Shown in pieces: positions 8,373 to 54,087 of a stretch of DNA of 54,389 bases. This stretch comes from Prorocentrum cordatum. Its lineage: Eukaryota. The translations under genes were made by a program, and so were the position numbers. Below the pieces are notes generated by a model. That model worked only from the letters and a program-made list of their open reading frames with translations. It searched no databases and was not told where the DNA came from. Every line of letters begins with the position of its first letter. Within the stretch, counting starts at the first letter, position 1. Location of the stretch: positions 62,001-116,389 of the forward strand of contig CAUYUJ010000246.1 in NCBI GenBank assembly GCA_963575745.1, read 5' to 3'.

Positions 8373-11300
8373 ATTACTATCAAAACACTCGGCGAAACCA
8401 TCTTTGGATGACAACATAAATCGTGATTTTTCGAATGTTTTGGGTCTTCCTCCAGACTCTCCCTGCACATGTACCGAGAAGCGCCGTGCGAGAAAAGAGC
8501 TCTACAAGGGCCCCGGCGGTGACCTGGTTGACGGTTTACCGCCGGTTCCCATAGAGCTCTTCGAAGCTGAGCTAAGAGGAATGCGGGCGCAGGGTGGAGC
8601 TAGTTGGCCGACCGCGCATTAAGAGACAATGTGGTAACTTTGGGTCGAGTTTCTAATGTTTGTGCAGAATTTGAAAATTCGTTTTGAGAACGCGTATTTT
8701 TCTCACGTGTAGTAGGTTACGCCGCGACTGCCAGTTAAATTCTCAGGTCCGTAACTGCAATATTACTATCACAACACTTGCTGGAACCGACTGCCGTTTT
8801 GAGTCATCTTGACGCGCATTAACGGTTTCTGTACTATCTCGGGATATAGGACAGCTACAGAGCTGATGCTTACAGAAACCAATTCGGAATCATGAGGCGC
8901 GTCCATCTGTTCGATCGACAGCTCTGAACTCGGTCTACTGCTCGAGCTGGGTGCGCAAACTTATTTGTATTCTTCGAGTCATTTTGACGAGTGTTGTCCG
9001 TTTTCTCTCGCGATATCTTGAACAAAAATCTCAATGTGTAGTGCGCAGCGCCGCGCAAGAAAGCTCTACGAGGCTCCCGGTGGTAACCTGGTTGACGGTT
9101 TACCGCCGGCTCCCAGTTTCGCGGACCTAGTTCGGGCAGCAGACAGAGTTCAGAGCTCTGTATTCGACAGGCGGACGCCTGATGTCTTTCAATCGATTCC
9201 ACCAAAAGTCAGCAAAAGTTCCGTCGAGATTTTTCTTGCCAACTAGCTCTCCAGCGCGCAGGGGTTGCTTTTAGCTTCCCTTAGCAAGTTATGGCCGGAA
9301 GCTAAGAGTAATTCCGGCGCGCTGGAGAGCTAGTTGGCAAGACAAATATCGACGGAACTGTTGCTGACTTTTGCTCGGTTGAAAATTTTGTTCTCAAAAT
9401 TTGACAATTCGTTAGAGCTCTAGTATTTTTTCCCGTGATATTCGATCTTATTCCCGCTCGCCATCTTGAGCTCAGCTCGATCGGGTGAATATTATTATCG
9501 AAACGCACTCTGGCGGGATCGACCGTTTTGAGTCATCTTGATATGCGCTGACGGTTTTCTGAACATAACTCGAGCTTTGGGACAGCTACAGAGCTGGTAA
9601 GCACAGCTAATCGATGCAGAATGATCAGGCGCGTTCGCCTGTTGAACCCAGAGGTCTGAACTCGGTCTGCTAGCTGAGCTAGGTCCGCAAACCTGTTTGT
9701 ATTATTCGAGTCATCTTGACAGAAACTCTCGGTTTTCTGCACTTAACTCGAGCTGTAGGACCGCTACAGAGCTGATATTTACAGGCACCAATTCAGAATC
9801 ATCAGTTGCGTTTGTCTGTCGAATCCAGAGCTCTGAACTCGGTCTGCTGCCCGATCTAGAATCGCGAAACTATTCGTATCGTTCGAGTCGCTTGCGAGAT
9901 GCTGTCGGTTATCTGACTTAACTCGGGCTGTAGGGGGGCTGCATGGCTGGTAATCACTCGGTTGAAAATTTTGTTCTCGAAATACCTCGTGGAGCTCTTC
10001 GGCATCGATGAGCTAGAGGAATTCCGGCGCGGGGTGGAGCTAGTAACTCGTAGAGCTTTCCGTAGCAAGTTATTGCTGGAAGCTTAGAGTAATTCCGGGG
10101 CGCTGGAGAGCTAGTTACGCCGAGCATTGGCATATAAACTCCTCTCTGACAGCAGCCCAGCTCTGCCGATGCATTTTCTTATGAGTTGATCTCCAGGACC
10201 TGAACGAATATGAACATCGAAAAATTCGAAAGTGAAGATTTTCGAAAAATCTCTATTTTATGATTCTACTCCGATTCTGAGCACTTTCGCCAGTGTCAGG
10301 AGCTCTACGAGGTTCCCGGCGGTGACCAGGTTGACGGTTCACCGCCGGCGCCAGTTGGCAAGAAAAATCTCGACGGACCTTTTGGTGACTTTTGGTCGGT
10401 TGAAAATTTTGTTCTCAAAATTTGAACATTCGTTAGAGCTCTAGTATTCTTTCCGATCATATTCGATCTTATTCCCGCTCGCCATCTTAATCTCAGCTCG
10501 ATCGGGTACCTTTTACTGCCAAAAAGCAGGCAGGCGGGATCGGCCGTTTCGAGTCATCTTGATACGCGCTTTCGGTTTTCTGAACATAACTCGAGCTTCA
10601 GGACAGCTATAACGCCAGTAAGCACAGCTAATCGATGTAGAATGATCAGACGCGTTCGCCTGTTGAATCTAGAGGCCTGAACTCGGTCTGCTAGCCGAGT
10701 TAGGTTCAACAACCTATTCGTATTATCCGAGTCATCTTGACAGGCGCTCTCGGTATTTAGTGCTTAACTCGAGCTGACAGGGCAGCTACAGAGCTCATAG
10801 TCACAGAAATCGATTGGGAATCATCAGGCGCGTTCGTCTGTTGAATCGAGAGCTCTGAAATCGCTCTGCTGCCCGAGCTAGAATCGCGAAACTATTCGTA
10901 TTGTTCGAATCATCTGACGAGGTACTGTCGCTTTCTAAACTTAACTCGGGCTGTAGGGGGCTACAGTGCTAGTGGGGACAGCAATCGATTTGGAGACATA
11001 AGGCGCGTCCGCCTGTGGAAGCCAGAGCTCGGAACTCGGCCTGCTGCCTGAACTCGGTCCGCGAACCTGTTCGTATTGTTCGAGTCATCCTGAAAGATGC
11101 CGGTTTTCTGCACTTAACACGGGCTGTAGGGGAGCTGCAGGGCTGGTAATCACAGGAATCGATTCGGAGACATCAGACGCGTCCGCCTGTCGCATTCAGA
11201 GGCCTGAACTCGGTCTGATACTCGAGCTGGGTTTAGGAAACTATTTGTTTTGTTTGAGTTATCTTCAGAGGTGCTGTTAATTTGCGCACGTAACTCGGGC

Positions 11301-12973
11301 TGTAGCAGAGCTACAGAGCTCGTACAGAAGACAATCCAGAAGCATCAGGGGGCGTTCGGCTGTTGCATCGAGAGGTCTGAAATCGCTTGGGCTAAAAAAC
11401 TATTCGTTCTCTGCAATTTATTTTCTATATTCTATATAGTCAGGAAGCTCTACGAGTACCCCGGCGGTAAGAAAGATTGACGGTTTACCGCCGCGGACAA
11501 TGTGATAACTTTTGGGTGGTTTTGCGAAAATTTGAACGATTTTTGACCATTTATTTTGAGAAAGCAAATTTTTACGCCGAGCATTGGCATATAAACTTCT
11601 CTCTAACAGTAGCTCAGCTCTCTCGATGCATTTTTGCATGAGTTGACTTCCAGGAACTGAGCGAATATGAACATCGAAAAAATCGAATTTGAAGATTTTC
11701 GAAAAATCTCAATTTTTTGATTCTGTGTCGATTCTTTAACAGTGAGAGGAGCTCTACGAGGTTCCCGGCGGTGACCAGGTTGACGGTTCACTGCCGGCGC
11801 CAGTAATTCCGGGGCGCTGGAGAGCTAGTTGGCAAGAAAAATCTCGACGGACCTTTTGGTGACTTTTGGTCGGTTGAAAATTTTGTTCTCAAAATTTGAG
11901 CATTCGTTAGAGCTCTAGTATTTTTTCCCATGATATTCGATCTTTTTACCGCTCGCCATCTTGGTCTCAGCTCGATCGGGTACCTTTTACTGCCAAAAAG
12001 CAGGCAGGCGGGATCGGCCGCTTCGAGTCATCTTGATACGCGCTGTCGGTTTTCTGAACATAACTCGAGCTTCAGGACAGCTACAGGGCCAGTAAGCACA
12101 GCTAATCGATGTAGAATGATCAGGCGCGTTTGCCTGTTGAACCCAGAGGCCTGAACTCGGTCTGCTAGCCGAGCTAGGTACAAAAAGCTATTCGTATTAT
12201 CCGAGTCATCTTGACAATCGTTCTCGGTATTTTGTGCTTAACTCGAGCTGCAAAGCAGCTACAGAGCTCATAGTCACAGAAATCGATTGGTAATTATCAG
12301 GCGCGTTCGTCTGTTGAATCGAGAGCTCTGACCTCGCCCTGTTGCCCGAGCTAGAATCACGAAACTATTCGTATTGTTCGAATCATCTGAAGAGGTACTG
12401 TCGCTTTCTAAACTTAACTCAGGCTCTAGGCAGCTACAGTGCTGGTGGGGAAAGCAATCGATTTAGAGACATCAGGCTCGTCCGCCTGTGGAAGCTAGAG
12501 CTCGGAACTCGGCCTGCTGCCTGAACTCCGTCCCCGAATCTGTTCGTATTGTTCGAGTCATCCTGAAAGATGCTGTCGGTTTTCTTCACTTAACTCGGGC
12601 TGTAGGGGAGCTGCAGGGCTGGTAATCACAGGAATCGATTCAGAGACATCAGACGCGTCCGTCTGTCGCATTCAGAGGCCTGAACTCGGTCTGACACTCG
12701 AGCTGGGTTTAGGAAACTATTCGTTTTGTTTGAGTTATCTTCAGAGGTGCTGTTGATTAGCGCACGTAACTCGGGCTGTAGTAGAGCTAGAGAGCTCGTA
12801 CAGAAGACAATCCAGAAGCATCAGGGGGGCGTTCGGCTGTTGCATCGAGAGGTCTGAAATCGCTTGGCCTGAAAAACTATTCGTTCTCTGCAATTTATTT
12901 TCTACATTATATATAGTCAGGAAGCTCTACGAGTCCCCCGGTATGCGATGTTTCTGATACGAGGCGTATTTCT

Positions 12974-15883
12974 GTGGAGAGTATCTTTAAGAAGTGGTAC
13001 AGTACTTGTCTCTCGATCATGCTTGAACCATATTGTCTCCAGGCTGGCACTCATGCATCGTTATTCGGTTTCGTTCCCAAAAGATCATGCACCGAGATAT
13101 TTGCAGGACTTAAGGCAGCAGCACAACACGCCTCACAGTGGGGGAAGGATCGACGTCTGGTTCTGGGGTCAGCGGATGTGAAGCAAGCTTTCCAGAACAC
13201 GAAAATCTCGACGGTCAAACGTGCGTTCGACGTCCTCTCTATCCCTCCCTGGCTCCAGTACGGTGTGCTCGTGCCTATGCCGTGCGAGGTCACTTCGCTT
13301 CTCTTCCAGGGCTTGCAGCTGCCAGATGTGGGAATTGATACCCACATCAGGACAGGTGGGAACGACAGCCCCTCCTTGTGGAACCTGATAGTCGTTGCGA
13401 TGTGGGCTCCTTTATTTAAGCTTTGGGATGAGCAGGGGATTGGGTTTCATTGTCTGGATCCAAACTCGGTGGGAGAAGTTTCGGCCTCGGTTCCTGTACA
13501 CCACTTGCTATATGCCGACAACATCTTTATCTTGGGATCTTCGGAGGAGGAGTTTAGGCGACAGGTAGGAGACATGACAGAGACTCTGCGGGGATGGGGA
13601 TTCGAATGGAAGATCGAGTCGCTCGAGGTCGCGTTTATCGGTTTCTCGGAGAAGCCAAAACATCCTATCCTGGTTCGGGTTCAGGATCAGATGGTGCCGT
13701 TCAAAGTAGTTGATGAGATGAATGTCTTGGGGAACAGCATATACTGTAGCTATAGGGAGGCACACCAGGACCTTCGGCGGCGGATCGGGGCCGCGCGACG
13801 AGCCTTCCATGCGCATGCAGCTTATTTTAGATCAAAGGCAGTCCCGTTTTCGGCCAAGTGTAGGAGTTATATCACTCGGGTTCAGAGCATTCTCATTTAT
13901 GGAAGTCAAGGTATTAGTTGGGACAGGGACTCCTTGCAGAGCCTGAATGTCTTTGAGGGAAATTGTCTTTACCAGATGACGTCACCCCAAAAGCCAGCCT
14001 CCGAAAGTTGGGTTGTTTGGAAGCCAGCTCGACTCAGAATTGCTAGACGGATGTTCTTTGAAGCAAAGTGCCAGAGTGCAGTGCAGAGAGTTCTTTATTC
14101 CTTGTGGCAGCTTGGAGCTGACATAGCATCATATTTTGGAGCTAATGTCGACAGCGGATATCAGATTCCTGAGTCGGAGCTGAGCCCAGGAATGGTCGCG
14201 GGCTCTCTAGGTACCAATGGGATGGGGGAGGTCTCTTCAGTTACCAATGGGATGGGGGCTGTCTCTTCAGTTACTAGTGGGATGGGTGCAGTCTCTTCAG
14301 ATATGAATGGGATGGGTGTGGTCTCTTCTGATATGCATGGGATGGTCTCTCCAGTTACCAGTGGGATGGATGTGGTCTCTTCAGTTACTGGTGGGATGGT
14401 GGGAGTCTCTTCAGTTACCAGTGGGATGGGTGCTGTCTCTGATATGCATGGGATGGTCTCTCCAGTTACCAGTGGGATGGGTGTGGTCTCTTCAGTTACT
14501 AATGGGATGGTGGGAGTCTCTTCAGTTACCAGTGGGATGGGTGCTGTCTCTGCAGTTACTAATGGGATGGGCGCAGTCTCCTCAGATACGAATGGGATGG
14601 GCGCTGTCTCTTCAGATATGCATGGGATGGTCTCTTCTGCTATGCCCTCTGATAGGGCCTCTTCTTCTCGAGATGTTGAAGTTCCCTGTGAGCGGGGGGG
14701 GCCTAGGGATTCCCCCAGGTCCCCCCCGAAACGTCGGAGGGTGGCTGTTCCTGGACTTGGACAACAGACGGTGTATCCTCGTGCGCATCGTGACGCACGC
14801 CGGCTTCTGATGTGCTGTACCCCGAGGTGGGAGGAGAAAAGGACACTGGAGTCAAAATATTGGCGTTCACAGTGGAAGTGGAAGGAGGCCTCGAAACTGA
14901 CACGATTAGGCAGTACTAAGGGGCAGGCGACGGGTGAACATCCTTGGTGTTTCATGTTCCAGACGATATTTCCCTCGTTTGTGAATCTGGAGGATCGGTG
15001 GTGGAGGGCGTGCTCTTTCTCTTACTCTGACTTCGTTCAGTATTGCAGGCAGTTCCTGGAAGCTTGTACTTTGGGGTCTCTGTTTGACTTGTTTGTTGTC
15101 CGTGGAGGAACTGGAGGGAGAGGAGACTACATAAAGGAGAGGGGGGAGGAGATGTTGGCTCGTCCGTTGTCGGCGAAGGAGTCCGAGAAGCTGGCCCAGA
15201 GATTGGCCTCGAACAATGAACAGGAGCCGACTTGGGATCTGAGTGATGATGGGATCGGTCTCGAGCTGACGGGCGATTCGCTTCTTATCTGTAACTGGAT
15301 CAATGGTCTCTGGAAGGTTGAGGGAGGAGAAGGAGGAGATGGGGCTTCTTATCGTAGGCGGGTGGCAAATATTATTTCTCTTTTGGAAGAGTTGGAGGAG
15401 GAAGGAATACGACCCCCCTCATGGGGCAACGACTTCATTCGACACATATATCGAGAGAGTAACACAGTAGCTGATGAACTTACCCACTTAGCACGGGAAG
15501 GCCAGATATTCAGAGAGCTGTTCCACCACCATATCTTTCGTTCTGATGTCCGAGACAACTTTCGAGTTATTGGCCTCCGCGGATCCTTCGACGGCGGAGT
15601 GTGTGCCCAAGGTGTGGGCGTTGGCTGGTTTCTGCAGATTGGATATATTCCTCGATTCCATGACCCTTACCCTGACCCTGAGCATAGAGATAAGAGAGCT
15701 CGTGTAGTCTCCCTCTTCCCCCAAGCCTCCTCTCCTTGTCCAATCATATGGGAAATAGTAGGGCGTTGTGCACAGGCACTCCCCTCCCATAGCAGTATCA
15801 CTGACGCTGAGCTTTCGGGTCTCGAGGGCCTCTTGCGGGCCGCAGTCCAGGTGGCCCAAGACCTCCAGCTGCAGAGAGACTAG
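12974..15883 (+). CDS. LINE ORF2, partial: reverse transcriptase plus circularly permuted RNase H
   Basis: Uninterrupted 969-codon frame. RT motifs FGFVPKRS, ADVKQAF, IRTGGNDSPSLWN, LYADN, VLG. RNase H motifs GDSLLI, RESNTVADEL, FDGG..GVGW, DAELSGL. Confidence 0.9.
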   Translation: MESIFKKWYSTCLSIMLEPYCLQAGTHASLFGFVPKRSCTEIFAGLKAAAQHASQWGKDRRLVLGSADVKQAFQNTKISTVKRAFDVLSIPPWLQYGVLVPMPCEVTSLLFQGLQLPDVGIDTHIRTGGNDSPSLWNLIVVAMWAPLFKLWDEQGIGFHCLDPNSVGEVSASVPVHHLLYADNIFILGSSEEEFRRQVGDMTETLRGWGFEWKIESLEVAFIGFSEKPKHPILVRVQDQMVPFKVVDEMNVLGNSIYCSYREAHQDLRRRIGAARRAFHAHAAYFRSKAVPFSAKCRSYITRVQSILIYGSQGISWDRDSLQSLNVFEGNCLYQMTSPQKPASESWVVWKPARLRIARRMFFEAKCQSAVQRVLYSLWQLGADIASYFGANVDSGYQIPESELSPGMVAGSLGTNGMGEVSSVTNGMGAVSSVTSGMGAVSSDMNGMGVVSSDMHGMVSPVTSGMDVVSSVTGGMVGVSSVTSGMGAVSDMHGMVSPVTSGMGVVSSVTNGMVGVSSVTSGMGAVSAVTNGMGAVSSDTNGMGAVSSDMHGMVSSAMPSDRASSSRDVEVPCERGGPRDSPRSPPKRRRVAVPGLGQQTVYPRAHRDARRLLMCCTPRWEEKRTLESKYWRSQWKWKEASKLTRLGSTKGQATGEHPWCFMFQTIFPSFVNLEDRWWRACSFSYSDFVQYCRQFLEACTLGSLFDLFVVRGGTGGRGDYIKERGEEMLARPLSAKESEKLAQRLASNNEQEPTWDLSDDGIGLELTGDSLLICNWINGLWKVEGGEGGDGASYRRRVANIISLLEELEEEGIRPPSWGNDFIRHIYRESNTVADELTHLAREGQIFRELFHHHIFRSDVRDNFRVIGLRGSFDGGVCAQGVGVGWFLQIGYIPRFHDPYPDPEHRDKRARVVSLFPQASSPCPIIWEIVGRCAQALPSHSSITDAELSGLEGLLRAAVQVAQDLQLQRD
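14215..14640 (+). repeat. In-frame ~30-bp minisatellite encoding (VSSVTSGMGA)n inside LINE ORF2
   Basis: Repeating TCTCTTCAGTTACCAGTGGGATGGGTGCTG variants; the reading frame is kept throughout. Confidence 0.9.
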
Positions 15884-16103
15884 GTAGGCACTTAACGGGC
15901 GCTGGGGCGCTCGGTGCCTGGTCAGCCTCCCCCCCCAAAAAAAAAAAGAAAGGTTGACGGTTTACCGCCGGCGCCCAGTCTGGAGACATTTCTCAAGAAT
16001 TAAGAATTCATGTTTTTCGTGTCCACATAAAGTTGGTTCCGCCAAGTGCTTTGATAGTAAAAGTGCGCCTACAGAACACATATTAAGAAGCAGAGACCCT
16101 CAT

Positions 16104-16456
16104 ACCTCGTAGAGCTCCTCGGCATCGATGAGCTAGAGGAATTCCGGCGCGGGGTATAGCTAGTTGGCCCACCCGGCCAGAAAGGACAAAGTGGTAACTT
16201 TTGGGTGGTTTTGCGATTTTTTGAAAGATATTTGACAATTCATTTTGAGAAAGCAGATTTTTCGCACCTGTAAACGACTATGAGGGCCTCTCTGTCTGAG
16301 TATGAGCTCTGCAGGCGCACTTTTACTATCAAAACACTTGGAGGAAGAAATGCTCCCAGAAGCTCTCTCTTTCGACTCCGAGCACTCTTGCGCGTGAGAT
16401 GAGCTCTACGAGGTTCCCGGCGGTGGCCAGGTTGACGGTTCACCGCCGGCGCCAGT
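16104..16456 (+). mobile_element. Family B element, intact (~350 bp)
   Basis: ACCTCGTAGAGCTC left end. Right end is GAGCTCTACGAGGT, hairpin, GCCAGT. Confidence 0.85.
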
Positions 16457-19400
16457 TTGACAATTCGTTTGAGCTCTAGTATTTTTTCCCGTGATATTCG
16501 ATCTTATTCCCGCTCGCCATCATGATCTCAGCTCGATCGGGTAAATATTACTATCGAAAAGCACTGTGGCGGGATCGGCCGTTTCGAGTCATCTTGATAC
16601 GCGCCGACGGTTTTCTGAACATAACTCGAGCTTCAGGAGAGCTACAGAGCTGGTAAGCAGAGCTAATCGATGTAGAATGATTAGGCGCGTTCGCCTTTTG
16701 AATCCAGAGGTCTGAACTCGGTCTGTTAGCCGAGCTAGGTCCGCAAACCTATTCGTATTATTCGAGTCATCTTGACAGAAACTCTCGGTTTTCTGTACTT
16801 AACTCGAGCTCTAGGACAGCTACAGAGCTTATATTTACAGGAATCGATTCAGAATCATTATTTGCGTTTGTCTGTCGAATCCAGAGCTCTGATCTCGGTC
16901 TTCTGCCCGATCTAGAATCGCGAAATTATTCGTATTGGTCGAGTGATCTTGAGAAGTGCTTTCGGTTTTCTTCATTGAACTCGCGCTGAGGGGGACAACA
17001 GTGCTTGTTGTCACAGGATCGATTTGGAGACATCAGGCGCGTCTGCCTGTCGCATTCAGAGCTCGGAACTCGGTCTGCTGCCCGAACTCGGTCTGCGAAA
17101 CTACTGTATTGTTCGAGTCATCCTGAGAGGTGCTGTCGGTTTCCTGCACTTAACTCGGGCTGTAGGGGGGCTGCAGGGCTTGTAATGACAGGAGTCGATT
17201 CGCAGACATCAGACTCTAATAATTAGATTATTAGTGTGACAGAGATTAATAGAACTTCTATAATATACAATGAGTCAGAATGTTGGTAGGTGCTGTCGGT
17301 TTTCTCAACTTAAGTCGAGCTAGGAAGCTCTACGAGTCTCCCGGCGGTAACCAAGGTTGACGGTTCACCGCCGGCGTCCAGTTCCGGGGCGCTGGAGAGC
17401 TAGTTGGCAAGAAAAATCTCGACGGACCTTTTGCTGAGTTTTGGTTGGTTGAAAATTTTGTTCTCGAAATTCAACAATTCGTTTGAGCTCTAGTATTTTT
17501 TTCCGTGATATTCGATCTTATCTCCGCTCGTCATCTCGATCTCAGCTCGATCGGGTACCTTTTACTGCCAAAAAGCACACGGGCGGGATCAGTCGTTTCG
17601 AGTCATCTTGTCACGCGGTGTCGGTTTTCTCAAGATAACTCGAGCTTCAGGACAGCTATAGAGCTGGTAAGCACAGCTAATCGATTCAGAATGATCAGGC
17701 GCGTTCGCCTGTTGAAGCTAGAGGTCTGAAGTCGGTCTGCTAGCCGAGCTAGGTGCGCAAACCTGTTCGTATTATTCGAATCAGCTTGACAGGCGCTCTT
17801 GGTTTTCTGTATGTAACTCGAGCTACAGGACAGCTAAAGAGCTGATGCGTACAGAATCCGATTCAGATTCATCAGTGGCCGTTGTCTGTTGACTCCAGTC
17901 TCTGAACTCGGTCTGCTGCCCGATCTAGAATCGGGAAACTATTCGTATTGTTCGATTTGCTTGCGAGATGCTGTCGGTTCTCTGCACTTAACTCGGGCTG
18001 TAGGGTGGCTGCATGGCTGGGAATCACTGGAATCGATTCGGAGACATCAGGCGCGTTCGCCTGCGGATTCCAGAGCTCCGAACTCGGTCTGTTGCTCGAA
18101 CTAGGTCCGCAAACCTATTCGTATTGTTCGAGTCATCCTGAGAGGTGCTGTCGGTTTCCTGCACTTAACTCTTCTGCAGGGGGGGCTGCAGGGCTGGTAA
18201 TCACGGGGATCGATTCAGAGACATCAGACGCGTCCGCCTGTGTCATGCAGAGGTCTGAACTCGGTCTGATACTCGAAGTAGGTTTGCCAAACTATTCGTA
18301 TTGTTCGAGTCACCTTGAGAGGTGCTGTCGATTTACGCACGTAACTCGGGCTGTAGGAGAGCTACAGAGCTCGTACAGAAGACAATCTAGAAGCATCGGG
18401 GGCGTTCGGCTGTTGCACCCGAGAGGTCTCAAATCGCCTGGGCTGAAAAACTATTTTTTCTCTGTAATTTCTTTCGACATTATGTGTCGTCAGGAAGCTC
18501 TACGAGTCCCCCGGCGGTAAGAAAGGTTGACGGTTTACCGCCGGCGCCCAGTTTGAGTCATCTTGAGAGGTGCTGTCGGTTTTCTGTACTGAACTCGTGT
18601 TGTGGCGTGGCTACAGTGCTGGTAGTCACAGGAATCGATTTGGAGACATCAGGCGCGTCCTCCTGTCGAATAGACTCGGTCTGCTGCCCGAACAAGGTCC
18701 GCGAAGCTATTCGTAGTTCGAGTCATCCTGAGATGCTGTCGGTTTTCTGCACTTAATCTGGGCTGTAGTGGGGCTGTGGTAATTACAGGAATCGGTTCGG
18801 AGACATCAGACGCGTCCGCCTGTCGCATTCAGGGCTGAACCTGGTCTGATACTCGAGCTAGGTTTGCTAGACTATTCGTATTGTTCGAGTCATCTTCAGG
18901 TTTGCTGTCGAAGCTACAGAGCTCGTACAGAAGACAATCCAGAAGCATCGGGGGCGTTCGGCTGTTGCATCGAGAGTTTTCAAATCGCTTGGGCTGAAAA
19001 ACTAGTCGTTCTCTGTATTTTTTTCGACATTATATATTGTCAGGAAGCTTTACGAGTCCCCCGGCGGTAAGAAAGGTTGACGGTTTACCGCCGGCGCCCC
19101 AGATCCGGGGCGCTGGAGAGCTAGTTGGCAAGAAAAATCTCGACGGACATTTTGAGGAATTTTGGTCGGTTGAAAATTTTGTTCTTGAAATTCAATCATT
19201 CGTTAGAGCTCTAGTATTTTTTCCCGTGATATTCGATCTTATTCCCGCTCGCTATCTTATCTTGATCTCATCTCAATCGGGTACCTTTTACTGCCACAAA
19301 GCACTGTGGCGGGATCGGCCGTTTCGAGTCATCTGGATTCGCGCTGTCGGTATACTGAACTTAACTTGAGATATAGGACAGCTACAGAGCTGGTCAGCAC

Positions 19401-32200: not shown

Positions 32201-33989
32201 ACAGCTTATGTCGCTGTTTCCCGTGAAATTCTCAGGTCCGTAATTGCAGCGCTATCAAAAGAGCTGGCGGAACCGACTTCGGATTAAAACTAACAAAAAT
32301 CTCAATGTTCAAGCTGAAGCTGAAGGAAGCTTCCTGCTTGTCTTCCGAGCAGCGCGTGGAAAGAGCGCTACGGGGCGGAATTTGGCTGCCATTGTACCGC
32401 CAGCCCCCAGTTTGAAAATATCTTCAACTGGTCATGGGAGCCAAGATATTCTGCACTTGTAGCAGAGTTTCCCGCGCTCGCCAGCTGAGTTCTCAGCTCC
32501 GTAGCTGCAATATTACTGTCGGAACACTTCGGGGAACTGACTTCGGATTGCAACCGAAAATTGTATTCTTCAAGTTCTCAAGCTTGAACTCGAGAAAGCT
32601 GTCTTCTTGCATTGCGAGCATTGCAACGCGTGCCAGAAGCTCTGGACGGTTCACCGCCGGCCCCCAGTTGACCGACCTGGGCGGAAAATGTGGCAACTTG
32701 AGGTCGGTTGGGCGACTATTGTTGAAGATTTGACCGTTCGTGTTAAAAACTAATAGTCTGCCGCGTAGTCTGTGAGGCCGCTTCTGTCTGTCGAATTCTC
32801 AGGTCTGTAGCTGCAGTATTGCCATCCGAAGACGCGGGGGAACCGATTTTGCATGGCGCCGGCGATGAACCGTCAACCTGGTCACCGCCGGGACCCTCGA
32901 AGAGCTCCTTGCACGCGTAAGAGCGCTCAGAATCGAAGAAGAGAACTTCGCAGAAGAGTTTATAGAAAAACGTCAGATTTGCATTTTTCGGCGTCAACCT
33001 GATGTCGGTTCCTCCAAATGTTTCGATAGTACAACTCTCTCTAGAGAGCTGATTGTCTCTCATAATGAACTTGAAACACTAATGCTGGGCGTAACAATCT
33101 GATATCTCAAAATACATGGTTAAATATCTTTCAAATCGTAACAAAACCGACCCCAGGTCGTCACATTGTCCATTCTTGTCGGGTGGGCCAACTAGCTGCA
33201 CACCGCGACGGAATTCCTCTAGCTCATCGTTGCCGAAGAGCTCTACGAGGTATAACATCCTTAAACATATTTTCTTCGAGTTCTCAAAGCTGATATTCGA
33301 GGAAGCTTCCTCCTTGTATTATGACGACTAATTCGTGCGTGAAAAGCTCTACGGGGGGCCATCGGTAAACCGTCAACCACAGGGGCCTCGAAGAGCTCTT
33401 GACACGCGAAGTAGTGCTCAGAATACGACGGAAAAGCTACTTCAATATCATATTAAATTTCGAATTAGCCTGACGAAGGACCCAAACATGTGCAGTTGCG
33501 AGTACCGCATTGTCGGTGCTGGTTTCTGAAGCTCCTCGGGGGCCACTAAAATTGTGAGAGATGCGCCGGATTCGGTGGCGCGGACGCATGCGGACTGGCG
33601 ACGACGGTGCACTGTCAACCTGGTAGAGCTCCTTGCATGTGTAAAAGTGCTCAGAATCGAAGCAGAGAACTTGTCAGAAAATTTGATGCAAATATTCTAT
33701 GAGGTCGGTTCCCGGAAGTGAGCCGATAGTAAAACTGCATATAGAAAGCTGATTCTCACTCAGAATAAAATTTAAACACTAGTGCTGGACGTGAAAATCT
33801 GATATCTCAAAATAGATAGTAACATATCTTCCAAATTTTAGCAAAACCGAGCCCAAGTTGGTCGGGTCGACCAACTAGCTCCACCCCGCGCCGGAATTTC
33901 TCTAGCTCATCGATGCCGAATTTGGTGGCGCGGACACACTGGGAGCCGGCGGTAAACCGTCAACCTTGTTTTTTTTGGGTTTGCGCGGG

Positions 33990-36900
33990 CTCCAGGGCGC
34001 TGTCCGCAGCGCCGCCCGATTGGGCGCCTAGCGAGCCTAGCAAGTCTAAGCGGAGGGCGCGTGTGAGCGCCTCGGCGGCAGCCACTTCACAATCTGTGAT
34101 CGTGGAGTGCGGTGGTAAAAGAAAGGCACTGGAGGCGATGTCCCTCCAAACGAGGGCATCACGTGGCTCACTCCCTGGGGTCCTCCTGCGGGCTATCTGA
34201 CGAGAGCCGAATGGAGAAGGAGTGGTGTGGTAAGTCGGACCCCACTGACTGTAATCCAAGAAGCTTTTCTGCAGCCAAAAACCACATCCGCAACCGTTGC
34301 CGTCCACTCCCCCATCGTATGCCCCACGATCGGCGACGTGTATAAGATATTGTGACTCAATCGGACTGCATGCAACCTGATTGGAGTAGAAAGTGCGGCC
34401 CTCTCGGGCCAGGTGGGTGAGCTCGTCGGCCCTGGTGTTATCTTCCCTGTACTCATGTCGATCTATGTCCCGTCCTATGTTCGCCGCACGGATGTTCGCG
34501 CGGCAGCTCACCTCGTATATGGTCTCCACACACTCCGCAACTCTGTCGGCATAACCCTGATTATGGCACCTCCACTTCCCTTGGAGCCACGATGAGACCA
34601 GTAGTGAGTCCCCTTGGAGGTCCACGCCTATCCCCTCACTCAAGACGTCCCAAACCGTAGCACGCTGACATATTATGGCCAACCGCTTGTACTGTTTCTC
34701 AAGGGCCTCAGGAGTCGTTCCCTTGGTGGACTGCTTGGCCTCGAACTGGGTGGAGCTCCAACTGGGACCTGTGGTGGCAACATGCCAATATTCAAAGATT
34801 TTGTGCTTGTTGAAGTGCCCCAAGATCGTCCGCCACAACTTCACAAAGCCTGTGTACGAGTCGTCAAAGCCGTCCCACCAGCAGGGTCCCAAGACTTCCC
34901 TATACGGGTATTGCCAGGTCCGTTGACCTATACTCGTGGGACCAAAACGTCTCCTGGTGCCCGAGCGTGCCAGTGAGAGCTGTCCCGGTGCATGCAAAGA
35001 AGATGTCAGGTCGTCTCTCCGAGACGTCCAGTCAGGATTGTCGAGGAGCAAAGTGCCTCGACTGTCCAGAAAGGTACGTGAACACCGTCCGTCCCCTCTG
35101 TCGATCCTCAGTCTCACTTCCCTCCCATCCTCCGTATCCGTCTCCCTGGCAGTGTAACGAGAATGAATAGCAAGCTGACCCTGCACATACTGAGCCACGC
35201 TTTGTGCAACATTGAAACTGCGTGCACATACCAACTGTGTGATAGATTGGAAACCCTCATCACAAAATTGCCGTCGGACGTGGTCCAATCGTCGTGGTCT
35301 CCAAATGTCCCAGCTCTCAGTGGCTGGCTTCCTGCGCCCGAACATAGACATGAGTAGACTCCCCTCGCAGCTGTGCAATAATCGTAGCCCCTCCTGCATC
35401 CAGTGTACAGCAGTCGAGGCCGTAAGACATGACGCTCTGAACTCTCTGTTGATATCTATAGAACTTAGCCCGTGGGCTCACATATTTAAAACGAAGTACG
35501 GTGCATGTGCGAAGAACGCCCTCCTGGCCATCGTGATCCGATGACGAATATCTCCATGTGTATTATCAAACTCTGATTCCACCACCGTGCCTAGTACCTG
35601 CATCTTCGTCACTCTCTTGAGCGGGAAGGGGGCCCCTGCAATATCCACCTCAAAGGAGCACGGTGGGGAGTCTCCTGCAATAATATATTCGAAAGAGTGT
35701 GGTTTCCATGATAAACCCCAGTCTTTGAAGCAAGTGGTGAGTGATGTCAAGAGATACTGTAAATCCTGAGCCGAGGTCGCAACGAGATATATGTTATCCG
35801 CCCACAAGGCATGTGAGTACCTGCACACGTCCATAGATACATCCAAGATGTCCGTCACGGGGTATCCTAGCTGGAGGTCCTCCCAAGACTTGAATAGGTC
35901 AGCACACATCGCAAGCACCACAACATTAAACAGCAAGGGACTCTCTGTGCCCCCCGTACGTCTGGAGCGGTCCCAGGATGTAGTAGCCTCCAAGCCCTCG
36001 AAACATAATATACCCGACGTCCCAACAAGAGGCTCCAGGCTAGCATGTGTGAGCCTAGGGTGGACTTTGAGGGTCTCCAGAGCACGCGCCACAACTTGGA
36101 TCGTAATGTTGTCGAAAGCCTTTTTAATATCGGCCTGCGCAACATAAGCAGTTTGGTCGTTGTTGTTTTTGCCCCAGACGCTCCCATGTTGACATATCTG
36201 TTTGAGTGGCCCCACGATCTCCCAAGGGCTCCTACCAGGGCTGAAACCGTAGTGTCCCAGTCGTTGCAGGTCCCCAGATACCTCCGCCTCCAGTGTAATA
36301 GTGAGGGATGTCAGGTACCATTTGGCAAGACTATTGGCAACGACAATCGAGCGTGTCTCACTCAATGATCGTAACGTGGGTACTTTGGGCATCAATGTAA
36401 TGAGAACCTGTCGCCATGTATCTGGAGTCGGAGAGCATGCACGATAGATAGAGAGAAATGTGGTGTAGATGTGGCGGATAGATCTCCACGTGAGTGATTT
36501 CAACAACTCGGCTGCACATCCGTCGGGCCCGCACGACCTCCCCGTGCGAAGGCGTGCTCTCGCTCTGAGCACAACGGCAAAAGAGAGCTTCGGCGCTGGC
36601 CGACCTGACACATTGGCCTGCTCCCGCAAGCGTCGTAGCAGAGAGAGTTGCTCTGCGCGAGACTGTGCACACGACATGGTTGTCGCCCCGTGTATCTGAA
36701 GCGCATCCTCCCACTTCCACCGATCCTCCGTAACCTCCCCATCCACCTCCAACGATGTAGTCTGAACCCGCTGTGTTTTCCTTCTTCCCTGAAGCTCCCA
36801 AGTAAGTCGGGCCCTGTCGTATTGTCGTTTGTGGGGTCTGATTTGTTGTGCAATGGTTTTCATTTGGGCTCTCTTATCTTGGGGGTCCATGTCGGTGCGT

Positions 36901-37979
36901 GACTTGAGTCTGCGGTACATGGCCTGGAGATCGGCCAACGCCGCCGGCTTGACAGGCGGGGAGCTGACTGCTGGCGGCACAAGATAGGGATCGGCGGGAC
37001 CAGACAAGCACGACCCAATGTCTGCAGGGGATGTGTTGGGAATGCCGATATCCGCGAGAGAGGCGAACTGGGATTGTTGGAGCTGGTCAGAGAAGGGCCG
37101 ACGAGCCGTAGAGGTAGGGCGCGGTTGGGAGCGAGGTCGATATCGAGGAGCGCGAACCTGGGGTCGAATCTCGAACTTGAGGAAGGCATGATCAGAGTAG
37201 TGGCTGTGGACTCCGTCACGCACTCATTTCACTATGGTCTCTCCTCCCCCCCAGGCCGTCGGAGTGCAAACGTAATCTAGCACTTTGCTAGGGCTGGCGG
37301 CTCCCCACTTCCAGTAGGTCGGAGTCCGTTCTGCAAAAGTATTGATGGCACAAAGTCCCTCCTCCCCCATGAAGTGTTCAAAGTGCTCCCTCGTCATCTC
37401 CTCCCTCCATCGTCTGCTCTCTGAATCATTCCCATATCCTCTCTGCCGTGTCATCATGAGTCCCTCCCCCGTGATCTGCTCCCCCCGTGTCGACGCAAGG
37501 TCAGGCGTGAGCTCCGCGTTGGCGTCGCACACAAGAAGCAAGCAAGCGCCTGGGAGCCTCTGCACCGCCTCGCGGCGTATCTGCCGTAGCTGTCGGCACA
37601 TTGTCTCCATATCCGTCGGAGCGTCATCATACGAGCTGTCTTTGAAATAAGCACTGCAGAAGCAAACACCGTTACCGAAAAGCACACCTGCGATCCGATC
37701 TAAGTTAACCCAAGTATGACTTATGTTGCATTGGTACGATGCCCGTACCAGAACCCCTGCTCGGAGACAGCTGGATGGATAACCCAGCCAACCAAGCCGT
37801 CTGATCCCATCGGAGAAAATTAAATGCTGGCACTCCTGGAGGCCAATGACCGCAACTCCTTCATGGAGGAGCTGTCAGCATAGGGCAAATCCTCTAGCAT
37901 CACGGCGACCAGCCCTGGCAACATTCATGGAACCTGCCGCGAAAGGCTTGTTGCCTCTGTCCGCGCTCTCGCGGCCCCC
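33990..37979 (-). pseudogene. LINE ORF2 (APE endonuclease, RT, permuted RNase H) with in-frame stops and frameshifts
   Basis: APE motifs SMNV, GLQE, SAY, CDANA, LDY, SDH. RT motifs GPDG, LMPK, YGFSPGRS, ADIKKAFDNI, RTGGTESPLLFN, WADN. RNase H motifs GDSLLV, REDNTRADEL, YDGG..GCGFW, DCEVAA. Stops at ~37876, 37224 and 35478. Confidence 0.9.
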
Positions 37980-39330
37980 TCACTCCAAGCTGGATTGGAA
38001 AGCGGCGACTCTGGTCTGGATACCGTAACGAGGCAAGACCGCGTCCCAGACATCCTTGTGGATGGTCCAGCGTGCTTCTGATGCCTTCCAAACTGCAAGC
38101 TCGATGGGTCGATGGGTCTGGAGGTCGGGCGGCTTGGTCCAGATAGTGCTGATGCCTTTGCCTGATCCAGTCTGACTGCTGATGCCAAACTTTGTGTTCG
38201 GATATTATTTGAGAATTGTTTGCCTCCACATGCCATGGAAACGTCCCACGGCGGCAATAGAACCCTTCTTCCATTCTGGGGCCTCGATCTTGATGATGAC
38301 TTTCTTTGGACGACGATCCATATCTGTGAGGATCTTTTGCATGGTGCGATCTCCTGCGAGCTTCTTTTGGGCATCTGTGCGTTCACTAGGATCCAAAAAA
38401 AAACGCACCCCACAAATGTTTACAGTTCCATAATACATCCCCATCGGTACCAGCGCACAACTTGATACGGCAGAATGAAAACATGGGCTGTTTACCGTTG
38501 ATACGAAGGGTACCAACATCATCCACTTTGGCTCTATCTTCCTTCTCGAGGAGGTCCAGTAAGTTTCGAATATGATGCTGGCAATCGAGGTCCGTGATCT
38601 GTGTCTCTGAGCGCGACATCGCACTGGACGTATCCGTGACCAAGCCGCGGAGTTCGATATATGATGGATTCCACTGGCGCTGTACTCCAGCTCCTCCAAC
38701 CGATGACGTGCCTCCCGCACTCGGGGCCGCCGTGGAGGCCGACGTACCTGCTTTGATGAAGGCGATCTCTTTCTCAAGGCGGTCGAGTTTGGTATCCTGC
38801 TTGTCGTTGTGAGCCCTGAGCGAACCAATATCATCCTTGACCTCTGTGATTTCCTGCTTGAGCTCAATCATATTCTCGGACTGGAGGGAGGCCAGGGCGC
38901 TCAGGGCATCTCCGAGCTTGCCGAAATCGTCGGGTGCATCATCCGCTTTGCACGCCTCGCTGAACGAGGCCATAGATTTCTCACAGGCCTCGCGTTTTGC
39001 CTCCAATGCCGTCGCCTGTGCCCGTCGTTTGACCCTGCGGTCGTCGCCCATGACTACATCCGACACAGCCGTCGTCATATCTGATGCCGCTCTGTGGAGC
39101 TGACTGAGATGTACTCCCCAGCGTTGACACCAGTCTTGGTCGTCCTGAGGGGACCTTTTGCGGGATGCTGCCTGGGCCGCTGGGTCCTCAGCCTCCGTAT
39201 CTTTGAGGTGTTTGTCAAGATCAATAGACTCAGTGGGATCGATAGAAGCGTCGATGAGATGAGTCTTCTCGTCTGGCCTCTGTCTGGTACAGTGACGTGT
39301 CAAAACCTGATTAAAGCGGTACGGCGTGAT
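37980..39330 (-). pseudogene. LINE ORF1 (coiled coil plus probable RRM-like domain), disrupted
   Basis: Heptad segment LKQEITEVKDDIGSLRAHNDKQDTKLDRLEKEI followed by WNPSYIELRG. Frameshift near 38400, stop at 38205, terminal TGA at 37980-37982. Start position uncertain. Confidence 0.7.
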
Positions 39331-39509
39331 GCATCCCTCGACCAATCGCAATCGCACGAGAGCAGGAGTCGAACTCACACGAGAGCAGGAGTCGGACGCA
39401 GGCGAGAAAAATATACTTGTGGTGTAAGAGGTGAAAAGGGGAGGTAGAGGTGACTGCAAGCGGGAAGGTGGCGTATCGTGACCTCCTCCCCTTCTGGAGC
39501 GACGTTGCT

Positions 39510-39536
39510 CTTGAGCCGACGTTGCTCTTGAGCCAA
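39510..39536 (-). other. Dinoflagellate spliced-leader relics at the LINE 5' end
   Basis: Minus strand reads TTGGCTCAAG (39527-39536) and GGCTCAAG (39510-39517), matching the 3' end of DinoSL DCCGTAGCCATTTTGGCTCAAG. Confidence 0.6.
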
Positions 39537-42500
39537 GTTGCTCTTGGTTACCGCTGGGAACTCGTAGCGCTTCCTCGTGCAATGCGGGCGCGGCAATCTT
39601 GCGCTGCGCGCGCGAGGGCGTGATCTGCTGGAGGAGAACGTGGGGGAGAAGAAGGGGCGAGGGAAACATGTCAATTGAAAACAATACTAGACAGACCAGA
39701 CCGAGTTCAGACGTCTGGACACTTTGAGTCAGCGCACCTGTTGATTTCGGTCTGACTGCTGTGCCAAACAGCGTAAAGAAAACCATGGCCGTCTAAAAAA
39801 AATGGAGAATACGAATAGTTGTTTTCGGTCCGAGCGTTGATGGCAGGCCGAGTTTAGGCGTCTCGATGATATAAACTGGCACGCCTGATTATATCCTTCC
39901 GATTGCCGTGCCAAATAGCTCTGTATTTCATCTGCAGCTCGGATTAAGTCAAGAACACCTATATCATCTCCAAAAGACAAACAGAGTACGAATAGTTGTG
40001 CAGTCGCAGCGCTGATAGCAGACCGAGTTCAGGCTAGATACTTCAGACTATCGTGTATGACGAGTTCCTTCCCATTGCTGTGCCAAACAGCTCTGTAGTT
40101 CATCTGCAGCTCGACTTAAGTCAAAAAAACTATCACCATCTCGAATACGAGTACGAATAGCGTCGCAGCCCCAGCGCTGATAGCAGACCGAGATCAGGCG
40201 TCTAGATACTTTGAACTAGCGCGCCCGATAGTGTCCTTCCGATTGTTGTGCTGAACAGCTCTGTAGCTTATCTGCAGGTCGAGCTAAGTCAAGAAAACCA
40301 CCACCATTCCCAAGGAATGAGCAGAGTACGAATGGTTTTTGAGCTCCAGCGCTGATAACAGACTGTTGTCAGCCGTCTAGATACTTTAAACTCGCTCGCA
40401 TGATTATTGTCTTCCGATCGTCGTGCCAAACAGCTCTGGAGCTCGTATACAGCTCGATTTAAGTCAAGAAAATCATCACCATCTGCAAAGAAAATAGAAT
40501 ACGAATAGTGTTTTGGCTCCAGCGCTAATAACAGGCCGATTTCAGGCGTCTAGATACGTCAGACTATCGCGTCAGCTGGTTACTTCTGAGTGCTGTGCCA
40601 AAGAGCTCTGTGTCTGATCTGCACCCGATTAATGCCAAAGAGCTCCATGTCTGATCTGCACCTCGAGTGAAGTCAAGAAACTCGTCATAATCTCGAACAA
40701 AAAAATAGACTACGAATAAGAGCTTCGAGAACCTAGCTCGGGTAATAGACGGTTCAGATATCAGGACACTCCAGACGAACGCGCATGACGATTCTAGATC
40801 GATTAGGTGTGCACAACAGCTCTGCAGCTATCCTACAGCTCGAGTTAATTTGGGAAAACCGACAGCACCTGTCACAATGACCCAAACAGCCGATCCGGCC
40901 AGAGTGCTTTCTGACAGTGACAGGTACCCGATGGACCTGAAATTAAGTCGGCGAGCGGCAATGAGACCGAATATGAGGACCTGCTGTTCAAGAACCCGAA
41001 TAGCCAAATAAGAGAACACTGGCGCCCGCGATGAACCGTCAACCTGGTCACCGCCGGAACCTCGTAGAGCTCCTTGCACGCGTAAGAGTGCTCAGAATCG
41101 AAGCAGAGAACTAAAAGGAATATTTGCTTAAAGTCTTCATTTCTCATGTTTTGATGCAGCGTCCAAAACCGGGAGAGCAACTGGCGCCGGCGGCAGACCG
41201 TCAACCTGGTTACCGCCAGGGACCTCGTAGAGCTCCTTGCACGCTCGACAGTGCTGGGCAAAGGAGCAGATAGCTTCTCGAAGCATTTCTCGAAAGGTGA
41301 AACATTGATTTTTTCATGTCGACATGAAGTTGGTTCCTCCAGCTGTTTTGATGGTAAAAGTGCGCCTACAGAGCTCATAGTAAGACACAGAGACCCTCAT
41401 AGTCTTCTACAAGTGCGGAAAAAATTGGTATTTAAAAATGATTTTTTAAATATCGTTCAAATCTTAGGAGCAACCACCCCAAAGTCACCACATCTTCTTG
41501 TCTGGTCGGGTCGACCAACTAGCTCCACCCCGCGCCCGAACTGGGCGCCGGCGGTAAACCGTCAACCCTGGTTGCCGCCGGGAGGCTCGTAGAGCTTCCT
41601 TGCCATATACCATCTCCAAAGAATTAGCAGAGAACGAATAGTGTTTCAGCCCGGGCGCTGATAGCAGACTGATTTCAGGCGTCTAGATACATTTAACTAG
41701 CGCCCCTGATGATTCCCTTCCTTCTGCTGTGCTGAACAGCTCTGTAGCTCATCTGCAGCACGAGTACAACCACGAAAACCAATACCATCTCCAAGAAATT
41801 AGCAGAGTACGAATAGTTGTTCAGCCCGAGCGCTGATAGCAGACTGAGTTCAGGCATCTAGATACTTCCAAATAGCGCGCCTCAATAATCCCTTCCGATT
41901 GCTGTGCCTAAGAGCTCTGGAGCTCATCTGCAGGTCGAGTTAAGTCAAGAAACCATTTCATCACCAGAAAAAAAAAACAGAGTATGACTAGTCGTTCGGC
42001 TGCTGCGCTCATAACAGACCCAATTCAAGCGTCTAGATACTCGTACTAGCGCGCCTGATGATTTTCTTCCGATTTCTGTGCCAAAGAGCTCTCAAGCTCA
42101 TCTGCAGCTCGAATTCAGCGAAGAAGTTCATCATCATCTCGAGAAAAATCGGTACAATATAAATTTTGTTTCGGACGCAGCTCGAGTAGCAGACCGAGTT
42201 CAGACCTCTAGATGCTTTAGACGAACGCGCCTGATATTCTCAATCGATTACGTGTGCGCACCAGCTCTGTATCTCCCCTACAGCTCGAGTTAAGTACAGA
42301 AAACCGACAGCACCTGTCAAGATGACTCCAAACAGCCGATCCCGCCTGGATGCTTTTTGGCAGTAATAGGTACCCGATCGAGCTGAGATTTAGACGGCGA
42401 GCGGGAATAAGATCGAATATCGCGGGGAAAAATATTAGAGCCCTAACGAATTTTTGAATTTCGAGAACATAACTGGCAGCCGGCGGTGAACCGTCAACCA

Positions 42501-45980: not shown

Positions 45981-46019
45981 AGCCCTACAGCCACCAAGGA
46001 AAATGAACGTGAACAACAA

Positions 46020-52797: not shown

Positions 52798-52845
52798 TAG
52801 ATTATGGGGTGTCGGGCGTTGTCCAAACAATATTTTGCCACCGAG

Positions 52846-54087
52846 GTGGCGTCTACGGGCATCGATTTCAGCCAGTTCAAGCACAGCCAAGTGTGGGGCG
52901 ACGGCTTCGCTCGTGCCGAGGACCGTTTCCCAGGGTTCGTGGGCTTGCAGCTCATGGAGATCCTGTTTCACTTCTATCCCATCTCGAAGGGCGCCTCGAT
53001 CAAGTTCATCAACGGCGCAGGGCAGTGGGCCATCTGGAGGGACCCCTTGAACAGCTCTCGCGGGGACGAGGCTACGATAGAGGACCCTGGACCCTGCCGA
53101 ACTTCTAAACGCAGCCACGCAACCATCCTTGACCGTATTACCTTATTTATTCTCTTCATCGCTTTGCTCCTTCTCCTTCTCGTGAAGGATAGGGCCGCCA
53201 GCATCGAGACCGTAGGCTTGCTTCATGGTCTCCGAGGCGGTGCGTGGGTCAGGGCTGGCTCCAAAGATAACGCCATGGGCCCCGCCGCCACCTTCACCAC
53301 GCTCCACTGGGGGTCATTGTGCGACGGCGTCAAGAGGGCCTTCGACCGTGACCCGAAGAAGTTGAATGCGAAGGTCCAGCGCAGCGTTGCCCTCGGCTTG
53401 CAGGACGTCACCGTGTTCCCGTTCGACACCCCGAGGGACGTCTGCGAGAAGCTGGTGTCCTTGGGCAACTCCATGAACAACAAAGCCTTGTCGACCACCT
53501 TCGTCGAGGTTTGCGAGTCGACCGACGTCATCGAGGCGACGTGGGACAAGCAGAAGGAGGATTTTGGCTGGACTCATTCCAGCATCGGGCAGACGGCCAC
53601 GGAGGCCAACAAGAAGGCGATGTTCAAGGCCGCGTTCGATTACCCACGCTGGGACTCCGTCCCGATGTACGAGAATTGCCGCAAGTTCTACGCCGGCGCC
53701 AAGGCCCTGGTCATCAAGCGCGGGTCGGGCGCTGAGGTGGCCTACTGGGATGTGTTCAAGGAGAGCACTGCTAGGGATCGCAACGAACCCCTATTCCGAA
53801 ACATCATGGGGCTGTGGTGGCTGGGGAGGGATTCTTGGGCAGGGCCCCCCCCCGATTCTGCTGCGCCCCACCAGGGGGGGGGCCTCCCCAGCCACTGCAG
53901 CCCAACGTGACGTTTCAGAAGGGGTGGGTTCTTCGAGGAGTGGTGCAAGACCAATGTTGATTTCACGAATAGGGCCGTCGATAACCATCGGGTGATCTTC
54001 GCCAGCTGCTTCGCCATCTTCAAGCGCTTCAAGGACGACCCTTCCATGATGGAGCAGCTGTTCTCGCTCGTGCTGCCTGTGAACAGG
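52846..54087 (+). CDS. Exons of an uncharacterised multi-exon protein gene (probable exons ~52846-53082, 53188-~53760, ~53990-54087)
   Basis: GC3-rich coding-like segments alternate with low-complexity segments bounded by AG|G junctions, e.g. an in-frame 105-bp GA..AG intron candidate at 53083-53187. Product unknown. Confidence 0.5.

Follow-up and report, generated by a model that had tools for sequence, protein, structure and literature searches.

Long interspersed nuclear elements (LINEs) of the L1 type in plants and oomycetes can carry an archaeal-type ribonuclease H (aRNH) C-terminal to their reverse transcriptase (RT), and a 2013 paper on plant L1 elements reportedly deals with this domain. 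The aRNH (Pfam RVT_3, PF13456) is known from plant Ta11-type L1 elements, oomycete L1 LINEs and the Tat, Chronos and Archon long terminal repeat (LTR) retrotransposons, and its published signature is D-E-D-R-D, with R replacing the H of the bacterial and eukaryotic type (PMC5348765). Its chain runs β1-β2-β3-αA-β4-αB-αD-β5-αE in these elements, and the string 'permut' has no occurrences in that paper. Here, we describe a LINE family whose domain is alike in being type 1, in having D-E-D-R-D with R and not H, and in lying C-terminal to the RT of a putative APE-type LINE, but whose chain runs β4..αE and then β1..αA. The domain lies in open reading frame 2 (ORF2) of a LINE, copy 1, in a 54,389-nt stretch of Prorocentrum cordatum DNA (contig CAUYUJ010000246.1, positions 62,001 to 116,389 of the forward strand, assembly GCA_963575745.1), hereafter the window. 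We consider it likely that the last ~210 amino acids (aa) of this ORF2 are a single type 1 RNase H domain of the archaeal kind (aRNH / RVT_3-like) with a circularly permuted chain, and that this holds family-wide.

Engineered circular permutants of Escherichia coli RNase HI, used in folding studies, show that the fold tolerates permutation. Those are laboratory constructs, whereas the permutation in the LINE family is a natural, family-wide rearrangement of an otherwise familiar domain. Retroviruses and Tat-like LTR elements, with their dual RNase H, likewise have a remodelled RNase H region that holds two RNase H-derived pieces in tandem. There, however, the pieces are two complete domains, a newly acquired one and an older, degenerate 'connection' one that has lost its catalytic residues as described in PMC5348765, while here there is one domain's worth of sequence with all of these residues kept. 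Among solved structures, human LINE-1 ORF2p (8uw3, 8sxt, 9k6g), which comes from an APE-type LINE, is most closely related to the family's RT part. It has a wrist and a C-terminal domain, and the account of domains in PMC10830420 attributes RNase H to viral and LTR elements only.

A single open frame of 988 aa from stop to stop carries all four RNase H motifs of copy 1 (Table 1). The first-pass annotation of this DNA had claimed that the motifs stand in swapped order within one frame, and we located all four in that order, the GDS and H.YRE.N..AD motifs preceding SFDGG..GVGVGW and TDAELSGL. In P0002, the 327-aa sequence from copy 1 whose numbering we use here, GDS..H.YRE.N..AD (aa 125-198) comes first and FDGG..G.G.GW..TDAEL (aa 229-308) follows. 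We call the leading part half A, the counterpart of the C-terminal half of canonical RNase HI, and the trailing part half B, the counterpart of its N-terminal half. The four acidic catalytic residues that the annotation had noted are all present (D126 and D192 in half A, D231 and E304 in half B), and with R185 they give P0002 the complete aRNH set D-E-D-(R)-D, that is, D231, E304, D126, R185 and D192. The span first assigned to the domain, 15255-15880, also agrees with the AlphaFold domain, in which β4 starts at aa 119 (15254). The stop codon after half B is the true end of copy 1, and an A-run follows ~55 nt downstream; in both window copies, the stop, the A-run and the target junction come one after another. 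A second LINE in the window, copy 2, is ~30% identical to copy 1 and has the same permuted order, with a C-terminus that reads GDSLLV .. HEYREDNTRADELTHLA .. AYDGG..GCGCGFW .. TITDCEVAAAEAL.

The same order recurs across the family. We searched 1.84 billion cluster representatives for relatives and found 128 proteins at E ≤1e-3, 43 at ≤1e-10 and 8 at ≤1e-30; a word-indexed search added close relatives. Intact full-length relatives of 1299-1491 aa exist, and one cluster includes five members of 1455 aa that come from different contigs. Our alignment, A2, comprises 112 sequences, namely 110 of the 132 search matches and the two window copies; the remaining 22 matches were left out by eye as fragments of ~125 aa or less or as matches outside the domain. 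Hidden Markov models (HMMs) of the two halves of A2 were then run over 156 proteins, a set that includes the copy 1 protein P0001, P0002 and near-identical cluster members. Half A was followed by half B in 117 of these, half A stood alone in 29 and half B in 6 (fragments). Neither the order B-A nor B-A-B occurred in any of the 156 at an independent E value (i-E) <1e-3. An HMM search with each half had been proposed in the first-pass annotation, and its outcome agrees with the swapped order. Because copy 2 and 117 of 156 relatives share this order, it is not an accident of one copy; it is kept in more than 100 independent database proteins.

The residues expected of an active site are kept as well. 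Within A2, the catalytic columns hold D231 in 100 of 102 sequences, E304 in 82 of 89, D126 in 86 of 91, R185 in 102 of 107 and D192 in 103 of 107, so that all five residues are 92-98% conserved. Such conservation over sequences down to ~25% identity would argue for a working nuclease.

Both halves can be aligned to solved RNases H. The A2 profile gave seven matches at E up to 10 among all Protein Data Bank (PDB) sequences, of which six are archaeal-type type 1 RNases H: Halobacterium RNase H1 (4e19, E 1.1e-7), LC11-RNase H1 (3u3g, E 1.7e-7) and its variant (4h8k), Sulfolobus tokodaii RNase HI (3aly and 2ehg) and Mycobacterium tuberculosis Rv2228c (3hst, E 8e-5). These best matches have the canonical order and are stand-alone or differently fused, unlike the permuted ORF2 domain. 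Profile positions 80-156 (GDS..AD) align to the C-half of the RNase H chain, residues ~70-136, and positions 167-234 (FDGG..aE) align to its N-half (4e19 residues 63-127), with FDG on FDGG and AE on aE.

Pfam gives a similar picture. RVT_3 matches 44 of the 112 A2 members at E up to 0.1, and RNase_H matches only 2. When 68 members were scanned one by one, 29 matched RVT_3 at E ≤0.01. The best stretch was RVT_3 profile 53-123 on the GDS half in 27 of these; in the other two, the N-half of the profile lay after the GDS half (P0096, aa 162-220 on profile 2-57; P0087, aa 152-182 on profile 30-62). Six relatives pass the RVT_3 cut-off (P0046, P0071, P0083, P0096, P0110 and P0133). P0133 does so in two stretches (E 1.7e-6, 28.4 bits against a cut-off of 21.6), the better of which, aa 488-544 on profile 2-56, is downstream of its GDS at aa 394-396. 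Furthermore, P0128, which JGI names 'ribonuclease HI', carries the sequence 'FTDGS' downstream of its 'SDS..N..AD' half. In the ESM Atlas, the closest clusters are RVT_3 (score 0.90) and RNase_H (0.89). Taken at the sequence level, these matches show halves A and B each to be homologous to its counterpart in archaeal-type RNase HI / RVT_3, with the order of the halves exchanged.

Structure prediction for the last ~210 aa, also suggested in the first-pass annotation, returned a confident domain with its halves in swapped order in both P0002 and P0133. The AlphaFold2 model of P0002 (112-row alignment) has a mean predicted local distance difference test (pLDDT) of 83.3 and a predicted template modelling score (pTM) of 0.72, for a query that includes ~90 poorly ordered residues. 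Means over 10-residue blocks are 81-98 for aa 91-250 and 95-98 for aa 281-320. The predicted elements are strand 119-125 (β4), helix 128-134 (αB), helix 148-167 (αD), strand 180-182 (β5), helix 189-199 (αE, with N..AD), short linker elements, strand 221-235 (β1), strand 238-251 (β2), strand 283-294 (β3) and helix 300-326 (αA). A variable, low-confidence insert (aa 252-282) separates β2, with its G.G.GW, from β3. P0133, which is 22% identical and has short loops, shows the same element order; its block means for aa 391-550 are 90-98. Both models and the HMM coordinates thus have β4-αB-αD-β5-αE-β1-β2-β3-αA in place of the canonical order, and the predicted chain is a canonical RNase H cut between αA and β4 and rejoined from αE to β1. 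In the models, the halves are predicted to be one compact unit (pLDDT >90).

Foldseek matched neither model to anything at E ≤1e-3. The RNase HI of Sulfolobus ranked 37th (89 columns, root-mean-square deviation (rmsd) 3.4 Å, 25% identity), and archaeal-type RNases HI were the only rows of the structure search with 26-29% identity, each matching one half of a model at a time. Sequential structure aligners behave in this way, as expected, for a permutant, and hence their output is no proof of fold. Both models also draw the same weak Foldseek neighbours, PelC, CsgG and LptE-like lipoproteins (E 3e-3 to 0.1, rmsd 9-19 Å), which probably share the β-α-α-β-α-β-β-β-α order by chance.

The first-pass annotation placed the domain in a LINE ORF2, and this assignment stands. 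Pfam RVT_1 covers P0001 aa 14-231 (E 1.1e-8, 35.5 bits; cut-off 29.6); aa 538-1446 of P0009, a 1455-aa relative, align to 12944-15865 (tblastn); copy 1 has insertion junctions and an A-run; and a profile of eight full-length relatives has human LINE-1 ORF2p as its best PDB match (E 7.5e-15). Note that P0009 used as a single-sequence PDB query gave no matches. The left junction of copy 1, at ~12943, is defined by alignment with uninterrupted repeat copies, the repeat sequence resumes directly after the A-run, and the 5' truncation point corresponds to about aa 538-545 of P0009. The element has A-runs at the 3' junctions of both window copies, a 5'-truncated copy 1 and no LTRs, all of which are LINE traits.

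Truncation has removed the N-terminal EEP endonuclease region from copy 1. In P0009, Exo_endo_phos scores only E 0.05 (13.8 bits, below the Pfam cut-off of 24.5). The family consensus contains the words GLQE, DAN.E and SDH, which may point to an APE-like endonuclease.

The RT of this family is itself unusual. In its motif C, (Y/W)ADN stands in place of the xxDD, with two aspartates, that is usual for LINE RTs; L1 ORF2p has the common form xADD. We found (Y/W)ADN in all 21 relatives that cover motif C (12 distinct representatives, the rest being cluster members), among them P0009, P0013, P0014, P0022, P0029, P0049, P0133, P0150 and P0157-P0159. Copy 1 has YADN, and motif C of copy 2 reads ALWADNIYLV. 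A literature search turned up nothing relevant on a YADN reverse transcriptase. In copy 1, the linker from RT to RNase H contains an in-frame 30-nt tandem repeat with GMGAVSSVT-like units (repeat search, family D7, spacing 30 nt), and the corresponding linker of relatives holds different low-complexity repeats, such as GIPGGGGKPH in P0009.

From these observations, we propose the following arrangement. The chain would start at β4 (GDS) and pass through αB, αD, β5 and αE (H.YRE.N..AD); a linker of ~20 aa would then join the former C-terminus to the former N-terminus, leading into β1 (FDGG), β2, β3 and a final αA (TDAEL). D231 from β1, E304 from αA, D126 from β4 and D192 from αE, together with the aRNH-specific R185, would assemble into a single three-dimensional active site. 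By analogy with other LINEs that carry an RNase H, the domain may perform two-metal hydrolysis of the RNA strand in the RNA:cDNA hybrid made by the upstream RT during target-primed reverse transcription; with the RNA removed, the first cDNA strand would become available for synthesis of the second. We class the domain as one that would work like an aRNH, yet not as an ordinary RVT_3 member, because its order is not canonical and P0002 falls below the family threshold. Several results weigh against this reading. The match of half B to solved RNases H is weak (10 bits for 4e19, 0.4-1.5 bits for the others), and a half-B-only profile, of low power because it was built from six closely related sequences with the variable insert included, gave one PDB match, a designed protein (E 1.1), and no RNase H. 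P0002 has no significant Pfam match; its RVT_3 match (E 0.11, 12.9 bits against the cut-off of 21.6) covers aa 180-196 only. In addition, both window copies are inactive elements.

An alternative, which we consider unlikely, is that the permuted fold is not an enzyme at all but a structural or nucleic-acid-binding module, comparable to the retroviral connection domain, with the RNA removed by host RNase H. Against it stands the high conservation of D-E-D-R-D across 112 diverged sequences, since the degenerate RNase H domains of LTR elements treated in PMC5348765 lose these residues. Such a role would nevertheless fit a sequence so diverged that Pfam misses the window copy. It would also fit the many LINEs, including human L1, that work without their own RNase H; the domain comparison in PMC10830420 lists no RNase H for ORF2p.

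The domain could instead be the relic of a tandem RNase H, in which the C-half of a first copy lies beside the N-half of a second and the two do not fold together, although we judge this improbable. Permutations usually arise when a duplicated domain loses its two ends, which means that a tandem stage must once have existed, and a helix lies just before β4, where a canonical αA would be. An FDG/E half upstream of GDS, which the first-pass annotation had named as the contrary case, was not found: the half-B HMM gave no significant copy upstream of half A in any of the 156 proteins, and none has a C-half downstream. The only upstream matches to half B, weak ones in P0145 and P0147 (E 1.9-6.3), cover a word 'DGSY' beside the WW motif that is missing from the other members. 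When hhalign compared the 99 residues upstream, or the helix that precedes β4, with half B or with β3-αA, the probability was 0.1%. The Asp of an upstream 'LFD' is variable (D/E/Y/E/E in the first five sequences), and AlphaFold2 predicts helices only before aa 119 of P0002, with P0133 likewise only helical upstream. We also considered helix aa 92-107 as a vestigial αA and found no support for it, given the hhalign result and the poor retention of its Glu, E96 (22 of 61 sequences, against 82 of 89 for the C-terminal E304). Moreover, unpaired halves are not expected to keep all catalytic residues or to reach pLDDT >90 as one unit, and the ORF terminates at the A-run. Only four proteins, all of them close, came back when the RT region of P0009 was used to look for relatives of canonical order, and there was no canonical or tandem intermediate among them. 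The permuted domain itself would presumably have arisen by duplication and subsequent loss of the outer half-domains.

We see only a slim chance that the active site forms solely in a domain-swapped dimer, in which half A comes from one ORF2 molecule and half B from a second, given that the ~21-aa linker is conserved in its presence and that the single-chain model is confident without a partner. Chance resemblance of motifs, or a rearrangement or assembly artefact of copy 1, is suggested by the shortness of the motifs and by the position of a truncated copy in repetitive DNA, but is refuted by the search for relatives, the profile matches to PDB RNases H (E down to 1e-7) and the order count of 117 in 156, with the same order in copy 2 and more than 100 independent database proteins, and its probability is negligible.

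The first-pass annotation was aware of no description of a permuted RNase H in non-LTR elements, and our full-text literature search found none either. Among the matches listed there was no permuted RNase H in a retroelement, a provisional result, as most subscription journals and Repbase reports lie outside the search. The main text of a 2014 survey of the RNase H-like superfamily (PMC3985635) does not contain 'permut', and the passages with 'permuted' or 'permutation' in PMC13524379, PMC10830420, PMC5029228 and PMC2628886 concern other matters.

Copy 1 is inserted in arrays of a ~177-nt repeat that occupy the window from ~9000 to 21000 and beyond, with higher-order units of ~1.0-1.5 kb. A palindromic motif of ~60 nt occurs at 39 sites in the window (counted by its right half, allowing 3 mismatches), where 0 would be expected. 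Its sequence is AGCTCTACGAG..CCCGGCGGTAAC(C/A)A followed directly by GGTTGACGGTT(T/C)ACCGCCGGCGCCCAGT, the insertion point lying between these two parts. Examples are at 89, 5557, 15952 and 18525 on the + strand and at 33965 and 41567 on the - strand; sites are on + up to ~32 kb, on - at 32.8-42.9 kb and on + again at 44604. The two LINE insertions share one position within this motif (junctions ~12943/15952 and ~39541/33965); in each, the left half of the motif borders the 5' junction and the right half follows the A-tail directly. Since both occupy an identical point, we suggest that integration is site-specific or strongly site-preferring. Three more copies of the motif (3828 on +, 42844 on - and 44604 on +) have the left half replaced, and the replacement is A-rich at 3828 and 42844.

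Both LINE copies are dead, one being 5'-truncated and the other, full length, carrying two in-frame TGA codons in ORF2; all three stops of copy 2 are TGA. At its 5' end, copy 2 begins GAGCAACTTGGCTCAAGAGCAACGTCGGCTCAAG, and the word GGCTCAAG occurs twice. GGCTCAAG is similar to the dinoflagellate spliced leader at the leader's 3' end, as in the relict leaders of retroposed cDNAs. This similarity hints at the host lineage and at a trans-spliced LINE RNA. A longer, 15-nt dinoflagellate spliced-leader word had 0 matches in the window. Long open frames also lie downstream of the LINEs (Table 1).

Table 1. Positions, within the window, of the two LINE copies, their domains and motifs, and other open frames.
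Feature	Position	Strand	Remarks
LINE copy 1	12943..15951	+	5'-truncated; 3' A-run; sits within satellite-like repeat
Open frame of copy 1	12917-15883	+	stop to stop
Reverse transcriptase domain	12956..13609	+	Pfam RVT_1 match
RT motif C	13508-13522	+	YADN
30-nt tandem repeat	14159..14672	+	RT-RNase H linker
Upstream helical region	14951..15220	+	P0002 aa 18-107; confident helix aa 92-107 (EKLAQRLA); no β strands
Half A (C-terminal half of canonical RNase HI)	15254..15496	+	β4, αB, αD, β5, αE
Motif 1, GDSLLICNWINGLW	15272-15280	+	position of GDS
D126 codon	15275-15277	+	β4, GDS
Motif 2, HIYRESNTVADELTHLA	15443-15493	+	
R185 codon	15452-15454	+	αE region
D192 codon	15473-15475	+	αE region
Linker, ~21 aa	15497..15559	+	former C-terminus (αE end) to former N-terminus (β1 start); AlphaFold2 E204-207, H209-212, H215-220
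Half B (N-terminal half of canonical RNase HI)	15560..15880	+	β1, β2, insert, β3, αA; protein end
Motif 3, SFDGG..GVGVGW	from 15584	+	
D231 codon	15590-15592	+	β1, FDGG
Motif 4, TDAELSGL	15800-15823	+	
E304 codon	15809-15811	+	αA, TDAEL
Stop codon of copy 1	15881-15883	+	TAG
A-run of copy 1	15937-15951	+	
LINE copy 2	33966..39541	-	full length, decayed; tblastn of P0009 aa 19-1451; junction sequences
Copy 2, 5' end	39541-39480	-	
Copy 2, in-frame stop	37224-37226	-	TGA
Copy 2, in-frame stop	35478-35480	-	TGA
Copy 2, GDS	34596-34613	-	
Copy 2, H.YRE..AD	34407-34457	-	
Copy 2, YDGG	34308-34322	-	
Copy 2, TDCE	34065-34097	-	
Open frame	45981-47717	+	578 aa
Open frame	48230-50494	+	754 aa
Open frame	52801-53910	+	369 aa

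Work on protein folding and on two-metal nuclease catalysis uses RNase H as a standard model, and the domain is also a key marker in the classification of retroelements. Our judgement is evenly balanced on a broader proposition, namely that this is the first natural circular permutation of a catalytic type 1 RNase H, active, fixed and under selection in a LINE clade that has (Y/W)ADN, inserts at one precise point of a conserved palindromic motif and is scored as RNase H-less by Pfam annotation. A natural, conserved permutant means that evolution has re-threaded the RNase H fold while keeping its active-site residues, and the family offers a natural test case for folding-pathway studies, which so far are known to rely on engineered permutants. 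If the domain is active, the RNase H fold can run from β4 to αA in nature. The known role of RNase H in retrotransposition is unchanged by the permutation. Domain-based annotation misses the permuted RNase H, and this LINE clade (128 clusters at 50% identity, abundant in environmental assemblies) would be counted as lacking one. Such misannotation would bias reconstructions of the gain and loss of RNase H in non-LTR elements.

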